Source: Microgenomates group bacterium GW2011_GWC1_46_15
Lineage (GTDB): Bacteria; Patescibacteriota; Microgenomatia; UBA1400; UBA12028
Assembly: GCA_001002285.1 (NCBI GenBank)
Contig: LCLX01000001.1
Location: 192,302 to 256,301 of the forward strand
Direction: 5' to 3'
DNA: 64,000 nt
Shown: one piece after another, positions 45,438 through 61,982 of the stretch
Numbering within the stretch: position 1 is the first letter of the stretch
Layout of the letters: every line of letters begins with the position of its first letter
The notes under the pieces: model-generated
Told to the model about the DNA's origin: nothing
Database searches by the model: none
Seen by the model: only the letters and a program-made list of their open reading frames with translations
Translations under genes and position numbers: made by a program

Positions 45438-47084
45438 ATGGTCTGGAATGTTCTTTCCCCAGGTGTGCCAAAAACTCAAGATGAGCTTCGCGCGGTCTTG
45501 TTGAAAAACCGCGGTCTTACAACAAAAAAATCACAAGAAAACTTTTTACATCCAGTCTCCCCGCTCGAGTTATCGTTAAAAGATGTTGGGCTTGATGGTA
45601 GTGTGATGAAACGTGCTGTAGCACTCATTACCGAAGCAAAAGAAAAAAAATGGAACGTCATTGTGTTCGGCGACTATGATGCAGACGGAATCTGCGCAAC
45701 TGCAGTGCTGTGGGAAACATTATTTGAGATGGAGATTCATGCGCTCCCCTTTATCCCCGACCGCGAGCGGCATGGATATGGCCTTTCTATCAAGGCGATC
45801 ACCGATCTTGTGAGCGAACACGGAAAACCTGATCTTCTCATTACGGTTGATAACGGCATTGTCGCGCACGATGCATTTGAACACCTCAAAACGCTCGGTG
45901 TGAAAACGATTTTGACCGATCATCATCAGCTCGACGTTCGCGGAGCTCCTGTAGCCGATATTATTTTACATACCACCGCATTATGTGGAACCACAACCGC
46001 TTGGATGCTTGCCCGCGCGCTCAATCCAAAAAAAGCGGAATCATTGCTCGATTTGTGTGGTATTGCGACAATCGCCGACCAAGTTCCTCTCCTCAACGCA
46101 AACAGAAGTTTTGCAAAGTTTGGCATTGAAGCTATCCGGCGCACCACCCGTCCAGGCCTCCATATGTTGATGGACACTGCTGGTATTAAAAAAGAGGACG
46201 TGAATACATACACGATTAACTATGGAATTGCCCCACGTATCAACGCAATGGGAAGAGTTGGCGACCCCAAAGATGCGCTTCGGTTGTTATGTGGAAAAAA
46301 TACGCAAAAACTACAAGCGCTTGCTTCAGCGGTTCAGGAAACGAATACCCTGCGGCAGGACATGACGTTCCAGTTTATCCAAAAAGCGAAACTGCAAAAA
46401 AATCTGTGGATAACCGAGCGCGTCATTATTATTGAGGATGAGGCGTTTCACGAAGGAGTGATCGGGCTGATTGCGGGTAAGTTGGCAGAGGAGTTTGGAA
46501 AACCTGCTATTGCGATTGCACGCGGGAAAACGACTGCAAAAGCCAGTGCGCGCTCAATTGCGGGTGTGAATATCACTGAGTTTTTGCGCCAAGTCCGCGA
46601 TGACCTCATTGATATTGGTGGACATCCTATGGCCGCGGGGTTTTCACTGCTGGCAGAAAATATTGCGAAAGTTAAAAAGCGATTAGAAGTTTTGGCGAAA
46701 GAGCAAATTGGTCTCGAATTGCTACAGAAGAAACTGGATGTGGAGTGTGAACTACCATGGGACCTTATTTCTGAAAAAACAGTAAAATCGCTGGAGGAGT
46801 TTGAACCGCATGGTGCTGGGAATGTAACACCTCTTTTTGGTGTACGCAGAGGACGGTTGATTGAGGCACGGCGGATTGGAAAAGAATCTCAGCATTGTAA
46901 GTTAGTGGTCCAGCCAGAGAATGATCCAAAGCAATTTTTAACTGTACTTGCATTTGGCATGGGCGAAGCATGTGAGCGCTTAGCCAAAGGTGAGCTATTT
47001 GATCTAGCGATTCAGTTAAAACTTAACGTATGGAACAGGAGAAAAGAAGTGCAAGGGGTGGCGAAGGATATAAGGATGCAATAA
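45438..47084 (+). CDS. recJ: single-stranded-DNA-specific exonuclease RecJ
   Basis: DHH motifs FGDYDADGICATAVL, TDHHQ; DHHA1 GGHPMAAGFSL. Confidence 0.85.
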   Translation: MVWNVLSPGVPKTQDELRAVLLKNRGLTTKKSQENFLHPVSPLELSLKDVGLDGSVMKRAVALITEAKEKKWNVIVFGDYDADGICATAVLWETLFEMEIHALPFIPDRERHGYGLSIKAITDLVSEHGKPDLLITVDNGIVAHDAFEHLKTLGVKTILTDHHQLDVRGAPVADIILHTTALCGTTTAWMLARALNPKKAESLLDLCGIATIADQVPLLNANRSFAKFGIEAIRRTTRPGLHMLMDTAGIKKEDVNTYTINYGIAPRINAMGRVGDPKDALRLLCGKNTQKLQALASAVQETNTLRQDMTFQFIQKAKLQKNLWITERVIIIEDEAFHEGVIGLIAGKLAEEFGKPAIAIARGKTTAKASARSIAGVNITEFLRQVRDDLIDIGGHPMAAGFSLLAENIAKVKKRLEVLAKEQIGLELLQKKLDVECELPWDLISEKTVKSLEEFEPHGAGNVTPLFGVRRGRLIEARRIGKESQHCKLVVQPENDPKQFLTVLAFGMGEACERLAKGELFDLAIQLKLNVWNRRKEVQGVAKDIRMQ

Positions 47085-47108
47085 ACCCTTGCTTTAATAG
47101 CTGTTTCT

Positions 47109-47318
47109 TCATTCACTCATATATGCGATTTCTCCATCATCGACTCTTCGAACAAGTTGTCCACCAAGTCTGTATGGTGTTTTTTCTTTAGGATCAAGTT
47201 TTCCCGCGCGCGTGGCAGCAAATGGATCTTCGTCGCTCATTACAGCTACAGGTTTTCCGTTTAACATGTAATAATTTTTTTCCCCATTTTCATTCATATT
47301 TCCTCCTTCTATATTCAC
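47109..47318 (-). CDS. hypothetical small protein
   Basis: 69 aa; second gene of a two-gene minus-strand unit behind a structured leader. Confidence 0.4.
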   Translation of the reverse strand: MNIEGGNMNENGEKNYYMLNGKPVAVMSDEDPFAATRAGKLDPKEKTPYRLGGQLVRRVDDGEIAYMSE

Positions 47319-47329
47319 AAACTTTGTTA

Positions 47330-47488
47330 TTATACACTTTTACTTTCCTGCAACCTATCAATCTTTTCTTTCTTATCCTTTGCTTGTTCAAGCATAAGCG
47401 CAACCAATAAGGCCGCGGCTTTCTTAGACCCATGTTCTTTCCAGGCTTGCAGGTTGTTCATTTCTGATGATTGCGCTGTTCCCAGCAT
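47330..47488 (-). CDS. hypothetical small protein
   Basis: Start moved to the internal ATG (MLGTAQSS), which has a GGAGAGGGGGTGA RBS; the track start at 47515 has no RBS and abuts a terminator U-tract. Confidence 0.35.
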   Translation of the reverse strand: MLGTAQSSEMNNLQAWKEHGSKKAAALLVALMLEQAKDKKEKIDRLQESKSV

Positions 47489-47520
47489 AGTACTCACCCC
47501 CTCTCCTCTATGCAATAAAG

Positions 47521-47553
47521 CATAAAAAAACCTCCGGGTTAATTCGGAGGTTT
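47521..47553 (-). terminator. intrinsic terminator hairpin (AAACCUCCG...CGGAGGUUU + U7) within the minus-strand leader; candidate attenuator
   Basis: 9-bp perfect stem, 8-nt loop, then UUUUUUU on the minus strand. An upstream GGGGGGAGGUUUGG (rc of ~47587-47603) can alternatively pair with the 5' arm. Confidence 0.55.
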
Positions 47554-47655
47554 GGTTGTTTCTTTGCTTTTTCTATCGTACTATTCCACCAAACCTCCCC
47601 CCGCGTGCGGGACAAATTTGCCTTGAATGGAAAGACGATACCACTGGTTCATAAT

Positions 47656-47691
47656 CTTGGGTATCATACAAACCAAAAAACTGCTTGTCAA
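47656..47691 (-). promoter_or_regulatory. consensus sigma70 promoter TTGACA-N17-TATGAT on the minus strand
   Basis: rc of 47686-47691 is TTGACA and rc of 47663-47668 is TATGAT, with a 17-bp spacer. The -35 overlaps the aspS -35 on the other strand. Confidence 0.6.
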
Positions 47692-47712
47692 CGTGTGATT
47701 TTCTGGTACACT
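47685..47712 (+). promoter_or_regulatory. aspS promoter TTGTCA-N16-TGGTACACT (extended -10)
   Basis: TTGTCA 47685-47690; TGGTACACT 47704-47712. The identical 12-mer TCTGGTACACTG recurs before rpoD. Confidence 0.6.
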
Positions 47713-47718
47713 GAAAAA

Positions 47719-47866
47719 AGAATATGTGGCGATGACCCTGCCGACACCAGGTGAGCCAAGCCGCCAGAGGCGGACGGGTAAGCCCGGTATAGCAGGAAAG
47801 AGAAACGACAAGGTGGCACCGTCTTCAGCACGAAGACCCTTTCGCACAAGGGCTCGTGCTTTTTTG
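47719..47866 (+). ncRNA. T-box riboswitch leader (Asp-specific) with terminator
   Basis: GCGAUGA K-turn-like start of Stem I. GAC-A specifier-like triplet. AAGGUGGCACCG at 47809-47821 matches the T-box consensus AGGGUGGNACCG, with N=C as expected for discriminator G73 of tRNA-Asp. Then hairpin AGCACGA...UCGUGCU + U6 (47827-47866) immediately before the aspS RBS. Confidence 0.6.
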
Positions 47867-47893
47867 TAGGCGAATACATACAATGGAGGAACT

Positions 47894-49306
47894 ATGGAGT
47901 ACGGAAACAGAGTATTAATCCAAGAGTCGCTTGTGCAGGTTGGCAAAACGATCACCCTCAAAGGGTGGGTTGCGACAAAGCGTGACCATGGGAAATTGAC
48001 CTTCATTGATTTGCGCGACCGGTCTGGTATTGTGCAGTGCATGGGGTACCAAAAAATGGGTGAACTGACCACGGAGTCGGTGATTGAAGTGACTGGTATT
48101 GTAAAGCAGCGGCCGGCAAACATGGTGAATACGCAGATTGAAACAGGAACGGTTGAAGTTGATGTACAAGAGTATCGCATTCTGAACACCGCAAAAGAAC
48201 TTCCCATCCAAGTTGAGGGTGACGGATATGAAATCAACGAAGAATCTCGGTTGAAGTACCGCTATTTGGATTTGCGGCGTTCCCGCTTGAACTCGATGCT
48301 AAAGTTACGCTCCAAATTTATCCGCGCGTTCCGTGAAGCCCTCTACACTGAGGACTTTGTTGAAGTTGAGACGCCGATGCTCACGAAATCAACCAAAGAA
48401 GGCGCGCGAGATTTCCTGATTCCATCCCGCTTTTATCCAGGAAAGTTCTATGCATTGCCCCAAAGTCCTCAGCAGTATAAACAGTTATTAATGACGGCGG
48501 GCGTTGAACGGTACTTCCAAATGGCGCGGTGTATCCGCGATGAAGACCTTCGGGCAGACCGTGGGTTTGAGTTTACGCAGTTGGACTTGGAGATGAGTTT
48601 TGTTGAACAACACGATGTGATGGCGTTGGTTGAACAGGTGGTGAAGTCTGCAGTAACCGCGGTAGGCGGAAAAATCAAACAAGACCCCTTTCCCGTTTTT
48701 GAGTATGCCGATGTGATGAAGAAGTTTGGCGCGGATAAGTTTGATGTGCGCACGGAAGAAGAAAAAAAGGCGGGAGTACTCGCCTTTGCGTGGGTGGTGA
48801 AGTTTCCGTTCTTTAAGAAAGTAGATAAAAAAGATGCTGCAGAAGTTCGTGATAGCAAGAGTGGGTGGACGTTCACGCATAATCCATTCAGCGCGCCAAT
48901 TCCGGAACACGAAGAGTGGCATGTGAAAGGCGAGCACACTGGCGAAATCATCACCGCGCAGTATGACTTGGTGTGTAATGGGTATGAAGCTGGTGGCGGA
49001 AGCATCCGCGCGCATAAGCCGGAAGTGTTACGTGCGACATTCCGCACGATGGGCTACTCGGATGCCGAGATTGAAGCGAGTGTTGGCCACATGCTCGAAG
49101 CGTTTGAGGTGGGAACGCCTCCGCACGGTGGGATTGCGCTTGGTATTGACCGCTTAGTCATGTTGTTGGCGGGCGAAAACAACTTGAAAGAAACAATTGC
49201 GTTCCCAATGACGTCAACCGGCCGCACCGCGGTGATGGACGCGCCAACAGAAGTGAGTAAAGAGCAGATGAAGGAGTTAGGGATGGAAGTCAAAGAGAAT
49301 AAATAG
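47894..49306 (+). CDS. aspS: aspartate--tRNA ligase (bacterial type, reduced insertion domain)
   Basis: FIDLRDRSG, QSPQQYKQLLM, RCIRDEDLRADRGFEFTQLDLEMSF (motif 2), HNPFSAP, GGGSIR, GIDRLVML (motif 3). Confidence 0.9.
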   Translation: MEYGNRVLIQESLVQVGKTITLKGWVATKRDHGKLTFIDLRDRSGIVQCMGYQKMGELTTESVIEVTGIVKQRPANMVNTQIETGTVEVDVQEYRILNTAKELPIQVEGDGYEINEESRLKYRYLDLRRSRLNSMLKLRSKFIRAFREALYTEDFVEVETPMLTKSTKEGARDFLIPSRFYPGKFYALPQSPQQYKQLLMTAGVERYFQMARCIRDEDLRADRGFEFTQLDLEMSFVEQHDVMALVEQVVKSAVTAVGGKIKQDPFPVFEYADVMKKFGADKFDVRTEEEKKAGVLAFAWVVKFPFFKKVDKKDAAEVRDSKSGWTFTHNPFSAPIPEHEEWHVKGEHTGEIITAQYDLVCNGYEAGGGSIRAHKPEVLRATFRTMGYSDAEIEASVGHMLEAFEVGTPPHGGIALGIDRLVMLLAGENNLKETIAFPMTSTGRTAVMDAPTEVSKEQMKELGMEVKENK

Positions 49307-60935: not shown

Positions 60936-61619
60936 TTGAACATGGGTTACTTTGGAAATTTGGAAAAGAAAATACAGGCGCAGCAATTAAGAAAAAAGGG
61001 CTTGTCCTACTCTGAAATCAAAAAACGCATTAATGTTCCTAAAAGCACTTTAAGTAATTGGTGTCGAGACATTGCACTTACCGAAGGACAAGCTCTTCGA
61101 CTTTTTAAGAATAAACTTACAGGTTCAGCTCGCGGACGAATAATAGGAGCAAAACGCCAACAGGCAAAAAGATTACGACAAATTTCCGATATGTTAACTG
61201 AGGGGAGGAAAGAAGTAGGGTCTTTGTCGACAAGAGACGTATTCATTGCGGGAATTTGTTTGTACTCTGCTGAGGGAACAAAAAGGGACAAGGCGTGTGG
61301 TTTTGCCAACAGCGATCCTTTGTTGATAAAATTTATGGCAAATTGGTTTAGAAAATTTTGTCATGTTTCGGAAGAAAAATTTAGGGGAGCAATTTGGATT
61401 CATTCGGGTTCTGATTATCGGAAGGCAACACACTATTGGTCTAAAGTTGCTGGTATACCAACATCACAATTTCTCAAACCATATATCGTAGCAAATAAAA
61501 CAGAGAGTCGAAAAATTCGGAAAAATATCCATCCATATGGAGTATTTTCCATCAGATTTTCTGATGCAAAAATTCATAGAAAAATAATGGGATGGATCTC
61601 TGGAATACTCGATTCCTAG
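60936..61619 (+). CDS. HTH-domain protein, possible free-standing LAGLIDADG-type homing endonuclease
   Basis: N-terminal HTH (LSYSEIKKRINVPKSTLSNWCRD). FIAGICLYSAEGTK resembles a LAGLIDADG motif followed by a beta-rich region; weak, by eye. Ends 34 nt before the intron-containing tRNA-Asn. Confidence 0.35.
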   Translation: MNMGYFGNLEKKIQAQQLRKKGLSYSEIKKRINVPKSTLSNWCRDIALTEGQALRLFKNKLTGSARGRIIGAKRQQAKRLRQISDMLTEGRKEVGSLSTRDVFIAGICLYSAEGTKRDKACGFANSDPLLIKFMANWFRKFCHVSEEKFRGAIWIHSGSDYRKATHYWSKVAGIPTSQFLKPYIVANKTESRKIRKNIHPYGVFSIRFSDAKIHRKIMGWISGILDS

Positions 61620-61652: not shown

Positions 61653-61982
61653 TCCCCGGTAGCTCAGCCTGGTAGAGCGGGAAGCTGTAGCGTACTGCAG
61701 CCCTTTTTAGCGATGAAAAGGGAAACACAGGGTGAATTCAGGGAAGCCTTCGCTAGTGGTGAAAATCAATAGCATGGTAATCCTGAGCCAACTCCGATGA
61801 ATGGAATAAACGTAGTCGGAAGGGTGCAGAGACTAGGAGTGAGGATCCAACCAATACTCTCCAGAAGCGCCCTGCTCCAACATTATTTCGGTAGCGTTGG
61901 ATGAAGAGATAGTCCACACTTTATGGAAACATAAAGAGCATGTGTAACTTCAAGGTCCAAGGTTCAAATCCTTGCCGGGGAG
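61653..61982 (+). tRNA. tRNA-Asn: tRNA-Asn (anticodon GUU) interrupted by a group I intron
   Basis: Exon 1 61653-61688 (TCCCCGG acceptor, GCTC-AGCCTGGTA-GAGC D-arm, GGAAG, CUGU). Exon 2 61945-61982 (UAA, CTTCA, T-arm CAAGG-TTCAAAT-CCTTG, CCGGGGA, discriminator G). The spliced anticodon loop CUGUUAA equals the canonical tRNA-Asn loop. Confidence 0.75.
61689..61944 (+). ncRNA. group I self-splicing intron (~256 nt) in the tRNA-Asn anticodon loop
   Basis: P1: exon GCUGU pairs with the internal guide GCAGC (61697-61701), with U.G at the splice site. AAAGGGAAAC (P4-like). GGGUGCAGAGACUAGGAG (R element, P7 5' strand). GAAGAGAUAGUCCACAC (S element, P7 3' strand). The intron ends with G before exon 2. 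Closely resembles cyanobacterial tRNA-Leu intron core sequences. Confidence 0.75.

Follow-up and report, generated by a model that had tools for sequence, protein, structure and literature searches.

The stretch of DNA analysed here (the window, 64,000 nucleotides (nt) long) belongs to a genome of the Patescibacteria (candidate phyla radiation) that the sources name Microgenomates group or Candidatus Pacebacteria, and the locus is found in identical form in GCA_003484165.1 and some 20 further assemblies; sample SRR6487776 carries it too. The locus of interest has the genes for a CCA-adding enzyme, recJ and aspS as its neighbours. In many relatives recJ and aspS are adjacent with no island between them, so the roughly 800 bp that separate the two genes in the window constitute a lineage-specific island. 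The minus strand of this island holds a strong promoter, a leader with a short open reading frame (ORF), an intrinsic terminator and two small genes, and on the plus strand aspS has a promoter and a leader of its own (Table 1). Here we report that the minus-strand leader represents a new family that has no catalogue entry, is conserved in one branch of the candidate phyla radiation and is ordinary in principle, and we suggest that it is probably a ribosome-mediated (leader-peptide) transcription attenuator of the classical four-segment design.

The leader promoter agrees with the sigma-70 consensus at 11 of 12 positions and is one of three sites in the 64-kb window to do so at 11 or more; transcription is predicted to start at about 47657-47655. 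The original prediction, made from the sequence of this stretch, had placed here a near-consensus minus-strand promoter (TTGACA-N17-TATGAT) whose -35 element occupies the same base pairs as the -35 element of the aspS promoter, TTGTCA, and both features are indeed present. Its description of the two promoters as face-to-face was mistaken: they point away from each other and are therefore divergent, or back-to-back. Simultaneous occupancy of the overlapping pair by polymerase is probably excluded. The overlapping -35 arrangement is also found at L085, L089 and L110 (loci are given by their L numbers throughout) and is kept in at least four lineages. No promoter-like site was found between the terminator and the two small genes, which encode proteins of 52 and 62 amino acids (aa).

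A leader of about 165 nt, ending in a perfect 9-bp hairpin with seven U residues some 40 nt before the 52-aa ORF, had likewise been proposed. The hairpin is there as described, with the first three U inside the stem, and it is the sole perfect hairpin in the window that is followed by six or more T. The lengths needed revision, as the terminated RNA would measure about 134 nt and the full-length 5' untranslated region (5' UTR) of the 52-aa gene about 169 nt, and the U-tract ends 35 nt before the ATG of that gene.

The leader contains two mutually exclusive pairings. A G-rich segment upstream of the hairpin, GGAGGUUUGGU, had been recognised as complementary to the terminator 5' arm, and it matches ACCAAACCUCC, which is that arm with three extra bases, at 11 of 11 positions. 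In the minimum-free-energy (MFE) fold of the full-length leader, nt 18-49 of the transcript (region 1) pair with nt 57-84 (region 2, holding GGAGGUUUGG and a stop codon) to form a long hairpin, P1, and regions 3 and 4 form the terminator separately. When the 5' part is masked, folding gives the helix between regions 2 and 3 instead, at -18.1 kcal/mol against -13.6 kcal/mol for the terminator. Taken from the predicted start to a point shortly beyond the terminator (143 nt), the leader folds more stably than all of 200 dinucleotide shuffles (200/200, z = -3.1).

The stop codon within region 2 belongs to a 23-codon ORF that the original prediction had missed. Its ATG lies 10 nt after the -10 hexamer, 3-5 nt from the predicted 5' end, so the mRNA would be near-leaderless. 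Region 2 takes in the final codons of this ORF along with its stop codon, which begins 4 nt past the antiterminator strand.

Table 1. Positions of the features discussed, and the sequences of regions 2, 3 and 4 (in this order, separated by slashes) in the window and in the distant leaders
Feature	Position	Strand	Details
Leader promoter, sigma-70-type	47663..47691	-	-35 TTGACA 47691-47686, 17-nt spacer, -10 TATGAT 47668-47663
Leader ORF, 23 codons	47581..47652	-	MNQWYRLSIQGKFVPHAGGGLVE; ATG 47652-47650, stop TAG 47583-47581
Region 1, 5' strand of long hairpin P1 (anti-antiterminator)	47609..47640	-	inside leader ORF; MFE fold
Region 2, 3' strand of P1	47574..47601	-	core GGAGGUUUGGU 47598-47588, the antiterminator 5' strand
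Region 3	47546..47556	-	ACCAAACCUCC, common to antiterminator (with region 2) and terminator 5' arm (with region 4)
Intrinsic terminator	47524..47553	-	stem AAACCUCCG 47553-47545 / CGGAGGUUU 47536-47528, 8-nt loop AAUUAACC, U7 47530-47524
First gene, 52 aa	47330..47488	-	MLGTAQSSEMNNLQAWKEHG...; ATG 47488
Second gene, 62 aa, species-specific orphan	47109..47297	-	ATG 47297, strong Shine-Dalgarno
Divergent aspS promoter	47685..47712	+	TTGTCA 47685-47690, 16-nt spacer, TACACT 47707-47712, TG upstream of -10
T-box-type aspS leader	47731..47865	+	upstream of aspS ATG 47894; separate from attenuator
Specifier hairpin	47737-47751	+	7-nt loop CCGACAC, GAC at 47743-47745, then A
T-box antiterminator	47810-47841	+	AAGG / bulge UGGCACC / GUCUUC..GAAGAC / CCUU
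T-box terminator	47827-47865	+	overlaps antiterminator
Triplet, window			GGAGGUUUGGU / ACCAAACCUCC / GGAGGUUU
Triplet, L004			GCGGGGU / ACCCCGC / GCGGG
Triplet, L035			AGCGGGUUGUGUG / CACACACCCGCU / AGCGGGU
Triplet, L012			GGCGGUGUUGU / ACAACCCGCC / GGCGGGUU
Triplet, L014			GCGGUGGUGU / ACACCCCGC / GCGGGGU
Triplet, L043			GGGAGGUA / UACCUCCC / GGGAGGU
Triplet, L079			GGGGGGUCGUGUG / CACACGAACCUCCC / GGGAGGUU
Triplet, L007			AGGGGUUGGUA / UACCAAUCUCCU / AGGAGAU

Three independent routes, namely aspS synteny, an exact-pattern scan of metagenomes, and the downstream protein family together with a covariance model, led to 17 distinct homologous leaders in Microgenomates-type Patescibacteria; the sets used for alignment and folding comprised 13 closer and 7 distant leaders (20 sequences). 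A promoter, a terminator and an ORF that starts with ATG and finishes at the antiterminator strand are found in every recovered leader, as is a 5' hairpin in which this strand is sequestered. The sister species, whose AspRS is 95% identical and whose four-fold-degenerate sites are 25-32% different, departs from the window at 8 of 137 nt in the leader and at a single position in the roughly 235 nt of the promoters and aspS leader, and the leader is present as well at L089 and L091, from species with 76-77% identical AspRS. At L091 its ATG overlaps the TGA of an upstream gene (ATGA). The exact-pattern scan returned 17 stretches, four of them unrelated (L096, L099, L100, L104) and 13 of them leaders, which contributed eight further distinct sequences; retrieval through the downstream protein family gave mostly known sequences and one new variant, L115. 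BLAST of the leader and the small proteins against 80 aspS loci of other species found no match, and the distant leaders were recovered solely by the covariance model.

Most of the homologous leaders for which upstream sequence was available have a TTGACA -35 and a -10 at the equivalent position, with weaker -35 variants at L004 and L014. The closer leaders share the TTGACA -35 and the -10, in most of them the ATG follows 8-12 nt after the -10, and their ORFs have 22-29 codons. The segments GAGGUUUGGUGG, ACCAAACCUCC and GGAGGUUUUUU are invariant among them, as are the A-rich linker and regions 2 and 3, and the remainder of the leader varies. P1 together with the terminator is the predicted fold of 12 of the 13 close leaders and 6 of the 7 distant ones; once region 1 is masked, the antiterminator wins in 12/13 close and about 4/7 distant leaders. 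The duplex between regions 1 and 2 is stronger than in shuffles in 11 of 13 leaders.

The covariance model, built from the 13 leaders, found seven more in loci that had been fetched only for their aspS gene: L079 (Gottesmanbacteria), L043 (Curtissbacteria), L004, L035, L012, L014 and L007. In each of them a promoter precedes an ORF of 21-27 codons that begins with ATG, and the long 5' hairpin and the terminator are likewise present; six of the seven leaders lie upstream of aspS in divergent orientation (at L004, 2540-2910 (+), the leader is on the aspS strand). Across lineages, regions 2, 3 and 4 covary as a set of three, which occurs in seven sequence versions (Table 1). The terminator/antiterminator alternative put forward in the original prediction is thus conserved in the 17 distinct leaders and supported by covariation, with the alternative pairing kept in relatives and the triplets co-varying in the distant leaders.

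In the model-fitted alignment of the 20 sequences, the terminator is 98% paired, with compensatory changes in 6 of 8 pairs, and none of 500 shuffles equals it. The antiterminator, scored in fixed columns of the same alignment, is 90% paired with compensatory changes in 3 of 11 pairs, a result equalled by 1-14 of 500 shuffles; this figure is an underestimate, because the distant leaders pair with bulges in shifted registers. For this reason a register-free duplex test was applied to each sequence, with the 38 nt around the ORF stop as the candidate partner for region 3. In 15 of 16 leaders tested, this segment ranked in the top 1% of all windows from its own locus, and the few windows that equal or exceed it should mostly be the site itself and region 4.

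All 17 distinct leaders have an ATG in the first 20 nt and an ORF of 21-29 codons whose end falls -12 to +16 nt relative to the 3' end of region 2 (17/17), against 0.02-0.08 per sequence in dinucleotide shuffles. Judged from these sequences, the conservation of the ORF is far beyond chance, even with just seven lineages counted as independent. In 15 leaders the stop starts -12 to +9 nt from the region 2 3' end, a placement compatible with a terminating ribosome occluding region 2. The distance from the ATG to region 2 is 49, 52, 55 or 58 nt in nine leaders, always 1 mod 3, with indels in multiples of three, and in two leaders that have the ATG in another frame relative to region 2 the stop comes correspondingly later. 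The ATG is invariant amid variable flanks, and the stop alternates between TAG and TAA.

A conserved ORF might instead encode a functional micropeptide, which would make it the first gene of an operon, the hairpin an ordinary and partly leaky intra-operon terminator, and the complementarity of region 2 the outcome of a duplication, region 2 resembling region 4. The conserved position and length of the ORF agree with this, as does a loose hydrophobic-then-basic pattern shared by the peptides, but the amino-acid sequence has not been preserved (the 23 codons show three non-synonymous changes relative to the sister species, and subfamilies have essentially unrelated sequences). Moreover, region 2 tracks region 3 through seven sequence versions, as a relic duplication would not, and its pairing with region 1 is maintained too. 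We give a functional micropeptide very little credence. A conserved ORF with an unconserved peptide is the behaviour expected of a sensory leader ORF and not of a functional peptide.

Two further candidates were considered and set aside. The terminator 3' arm GGAGG, the U7 and an AUG together form a well-spaced Shine-Dalgarno sequence and the start of a 9-codon mini-ORF, MLYCIEERG, at 47523-47494 (-); it was rejected as part of the mechanism, being in frame only in the sister species (MRNCMQERG) and not in more distant leaders. A guanidine-II-like apical loop was rejected because the loop reads CACG instead of ACGR and because the sister species does not conserve it.

The original prediction had left open whether the leader is a riboswitch or an attenuator, and had been unable to assign it to a known riboswitch class. 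The second point agrees with our Rfam scan, in which no riboswitch reached the gathering score in the window and none appeared at E <= 10 in 47000-48000. The best near-misses were leader-peptide models, both sub-threshold (Trp_leader, RF00513, E = 0.008, 26.1 bits against a threshold of 41; Phe_leader, RF01859, 20.6 against 55), and the element is not a member of either family. The leader has no conserved multi-helix aptamer, its 5' domain being one long imperfect hairpin with the invariant positions in the pairing strands, and it is not a T-box, as neither a specifier, a UGGN bulge nor any architecture for binding tRNA was found on the minus strand. With no Rfam family, no aptamer and a conserved short ORF, the riboswitch half of the proposal finds no support; the attenuator half is right, because the small genes are separated by the switch from the one plausible promoter.

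An attenuator need not be set by a ribosome. A protein (for example the product of the first gene, about 50 aa long, acting on its own leader), a small molecule (in a riboswitch) or an RNA could throw the switch, with the ORF incidental or secondary. Such a factor would be compatible with the terminator/antiterminator switch, itself well supported, and with an ORF that has no Shine-Dalgarno sequence; it would also suit the invariance of regions 2 and 3 and the A-rich linker in closer leaders, which exceeds what pairing alone requires, and a first gene from one small family that travels with the leader in 9 of the 13 closer cases. We nevertheless consider it unlikely. Rfam offers no riboswitch even at E <= 10, and the 5' domain outside the pairing segments, a simple hairpin with no conserved pocket, diverges almost to randomness between subfamilies. 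Six loci (L107, L098, L043, L035, L014, L007) retain the leader without the ~50-aa family, and neither a pure RNA switch nor a protein switch explains why ATG, frame and stop position are conserved in 17/17 leaders.

The genes behind the leader are small and, for the most part, orphans. The 52-aa protein belongs to a family of roughly 50-aa proteins, probably helical, that is confined to this clade: a profile search found 18 members in 5.8 billion proteins, none of them annotated, phmmer against 1.84 billion representatives found the sister species only, and neither Pfam nor NCBIfam gave a match. The core of its gene is conserved with synonymous changes in the sister species. The only distant match is P0006 (351 aa), in which a module of about 50 aa with the motif W-K-E-(H/W)-G, corresponding to LQAWKEHG in the 52-aa protein, is repeated three times; the 52-aa protein may be a single copy of this repeat module.

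The second protein, given earlier as 69 aa, attains this length only from an upstream GTG; from the ATG preceded by a Shine-Dalgarno sequence it has 62 aa, and the 52 aa stated for the first protein were correct. No homologue of the 62-aa protein other than itself was found in 5.8 billion proteins. Homology with the sister species breaks off within the 3' end of the 52-aa gene; where the window has the 62-aa gene, that species has a 133-aa gene and a Cys-rich gene of 51 aa. Specific control of two tiny genes, as originally proposed, therefore does not describe the family, in which only the first gene belongs to a conserved small family and the second is without homologue and replaced in the sister species. 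The rest of the cargo likewise differs by lineage: there are Cys-rich peptides, tiny Lys-rich peptides (L004), and proteins of 87-210 aa that match no Pfam entry. Among ten cargo proteins Pfam recognised one, a sigma-70-family factor at L107. Since the cargo changes from lineage to lineage, the constant unit is the leader and its position beside aspS.

The recJ-aspS stretch (47085-47893 of the window, compared with L085 2310-3500 and L089 1659-3000) is an island of rapid gene turnover. At L107, 1745-2657 (-), the leader stands directly before the gene of the sigma-70-family factor (Pfam regions 2, 3 and 4), the sole cargo with a recognisable function. Downstream of the leader at L004 are two tiny Lys-rich ORFs, MARKKKPSGEKKSHQKKKCAVI and VKKDKKKKRGHKKKH, and both carry a strong Shine-Dalgarno sequence and a hairpin of their own.

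With cargo so inconstant, the leader itself could be the product: a transcript of about 134 nt that acts in trans as a stand-alone or dual-function small RNA, perhaps through the C/U-rich, anti-Shine-Dalgarno-like candidate seed CCAAACCUCC, with transcription of the small genes as leakage. A strong promoter and a strong terminator do bound a discrete conserved RNA, the leader is the only constant part of the locus, and attenuator-derived RNAs with functions in trans are known, such as rnTrpL (PMC6614838). A plain small RNA, though, needs neither a conserved ORF nor a segment that disrupts its own terminator, the small genes lack a promoter of their own and begin 35 nt beyond the U-tract, and no target could be proposed. 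We regard a small RNA as very unlikely to be the explanation, and it would be compatible with the attenuator as an added role.

From the layout of the sequence we infer that the leader ORF is translated, that the position of the ribosome decides the fold through coupling to transcription, and that the response has the following direction. The strong promoter would start a transcript that opens, 3-5 nt from its 5' end, with the 23-codon ORF. Region 1, within the ORF, would pair with region 2, at the ORF end and stop codon, into a long hairpin, and as long as this hairpin stands region 3 would be free for region 4, forming the terminator 35 nt before the first gene and stopping transcription. 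With no ribosome on region 1, this hairpin would form, the terminator would act, and the small genes would stay off. A ribosome that is slow or stalled early in the ORF, and so still on region 1 when region 3 emerges, would leave region 2 to pair with region 3, and the resulting helix (11 bp, stabler than the terminator) would block termination and let polymerase read into the small genes. A ribosome reaching the stop codon would cover region 2, and termination would again ensue.

Several observations weigh against ribosome-mediated attenuation and temper our preference for it. The ORF lacks a Shine-Dalgarno sequence and would depend on a leaderless or near-leaderless mode of initiation that is presumed for these bacteria, and in three to four leaders (L079, L043, L101/L103) the predicted 5' UTR is 12-20 nt long. 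At L098 and L107 the stop lies 15 or 16 nt past region 2, where a terminating ribosome would not obviously cover it. The peptide sequence is poorly conserved, with subfamilies essentially unrelated, and the U-rich and purine-rich arms of the apical hairpin may be all that lies behind the loose hydrophobic-then-basic pattern. The other frames of the same stretch are also nearly stop-free, and hence stop-codon avoidance is uninformative as a coding test. Regions 2 and 3 show no covariation among the 13 closer leaders, both being invariant there (RNAalifold on a MAFFT alignment of these leaders returned just the invariant 2:3 helix, with zero covariation), so that support for the antiterminator rests on the seven distant leaders. 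The regulated genes, being orphans, offer no physiological logic for comparison. Finally, the sensing part of the ORF contains neither a run of codons for one amino acid nor a repeated residue that would point to a particular signal.

Sensing of a particular amino acid was accordingly examined as a reading and rejected: in addition to the missing codon run, compositional enrichment singles out no residue, and richness in Ile and Leu is inconsistent between leaders. Over the first 13 codons the leader peptides show a 2.6- to 8.6-fold enrichment of C, N, W, H, Q and I and contain no D, E or P; Cys numbers 0-2 per peptide. Asn occurs at codon 2-4 in 14 of 17 leaders, encoded by AAC in seven and AAU in seven, and could reflect an A-rich initiation region or Asn-tRNA sensing. 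A likeness of the L107 peptide to E. coli LeuL was judged coincidental.

The closest counterparts in design are the enterobacterial attenuators (trpL, pheL, hisL, leuL, ilvL; RF00513, RF01859, RF00514 and relatives). The leader shares with them a promoter-proximal short ORF of similar size (21-29 codons here), four segments with alternative 1:2, 2:3 and 3:4 pairings, in most leaders a stop codon at region 2, and an intrinsic terminator just before the first gene. It differs in having no single-amino-acid codon run, a feature that defines the amino-acid-sensing subtype only, in an ORF without Shine-Dalgarno sequence placed 3-5 nt from the predicted 5' end, in cargo made up of orphan small proteins rather than a biosynthetic operon, and in its host, a Patescibacteria lineage with little biosynthesis.

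Other precedents bear on these differences. In mycobacteria, leaderless polycysteine short ORFs use ribosome position to remodel the RNA and unmask a ribosome-binding site, the signal being a run of Cys codons (Canestrari et al., 10.1101/834739); the sensory short ORF at the very 5' end is alike, whereas the output here is an intrinsic terminator and Cys is merely mildly enriched. The Corynebacterium ilvB uORF (upstream ORF) motif is an RNA motif that proved to be a translated upstream ORF controlling a terminator, with an inducer that was not obvious before characterisation (PMC10272879), and the tylosin-responsive yxjB leader, likewise a conserved motif of this sort, encodes a drug-sensing peptide that needs no codon run, stalling through the nascent peptide or a general slowing of translation (PMC6851288). 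Both of these have a known inducer and a downstream function that explains it, neither of which is available for the leader described here. In the literature searched, coverage of which is incomplete, we found no prior description of attenuators or T-boxes in Patescibacteria.

As to what a ribosome-mediated attenuator would respond to, we tentatively propose, as a possibility we would not rate highly, that it senses translation elongation in general and not one amino acid, reading the supply of Asn-tRNA or another aminoacyl-tRNA, or a general slowing of ribosomes. A near-leaderless mini-ORF fits such a sensor, as does the retention of Asn at codon 2-4 through both synonymous codons. So do the persistence of the leader beside aspS across the Microgenomates branch, where it often shares its -35 with the promoter of a non-canonical aspS T-box, and its place as the gate to a hot spot into which new small orphan genes are continually swapped. 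In bacteria that lack AsnRS, AspRS also makes Asn-tRNA; if the AspRS encoded here is non-discriminating, it would do so as well, and it is possible that both divergent units are tied to one signal in this way.

The aspS leader on the plus strand is itself a regulatory RNA. From its motifs, we assign it as an unannotated T-box with an ultrashort Stem I, of a kind that recurs upstream of aspS in many Patescibacteria. It is about 145 nt long and lacks the long Stem I with a distal platform for the tRNA elbow, and no match to Rfam RF00230 was found in the window or in 15 related loci. The ultrashort Stem I is presumably of the type found in actinobacterial ileS leaders. The specifier loop follows the consensus YUGACAN with GAC-A central, on a stem of 4-5 bp that covaries; a conserved CGGG-NNNN-CCCG hairpin is followed in several relatives by an F-box-like CCGUUA, for which the window has CCGGUA. 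The UGGCACC bulge is shared by at least 11 other Patescibacteria aspS leaders, and its UGGC would presumably pair with the 3' GCCA of tRNA-Asp, with G as the discriminator base. In the consensus fold, 7 of 17 pairs show compensatory changes, both antiterminator helices included. Like the attenuator, this T-box is a terminator/antiterminator switch that reads the state of translation, through uncharged tRNA where the attenuator would read ribosome progress. At L079, L043, L014, L007 and L012 the minus-strand-type leader divergently adjoins aspS although aspS has no recognisable T-box motif, so the linkage is older than, or independent of, the shared -35 arrangement.

Some further observations touch neither leader. 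Several metagenome-assembled genome records with Patescibacteria-type aspS loci (L004, L009-L012, L014-L017 and others) are titled 'uncultured Pseudomonadales' or 'Gammaproteobacteria', labels that look unreliable. From 60 kb onward in the window the GC content falls to 35-40%, and a group I intron lies at 61677-61936 (+) (Rfam, 89.7 bits), 58 nt 3' of a 227-aa ORF at 60936-61619 (+) with motifs that appear to resemble those of LAGLIDADG-type homing endonucleases; neither an rRNA gene nor a tRNA gene was detected in the surroundings of the intron.

To our knowledge, almost nothing is known about gene regulation in Patescibacteria. The aspS leader indicates that this phylum has T-box regulation with an ultrashort Stem I, which the current Rfam model fails to recognise, and the recJ-aspS island appears a good place for lineage-specific, perhaps host-interaction, functions. 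The minus-strand leader is a compact element of about 134 nt that makes clear predictions for compensatory mutations, and it could also serve as a native tool for regulated expression. A conserved leader-peptide attenuator would imply that Patescibacteria make conditional use of intrinsic terminators and that their ribosomes trail RNA polymerase closely enough to set the folding of the RNA, and it would suggest that these bacteria are able to initiate on near-leaderless messages. If the leader does act as a sensor of elongation, these uncultured bacteria would have a first defined regulatory circuit, which would also provide indirect evidence that transcription and translation are coupled in them.

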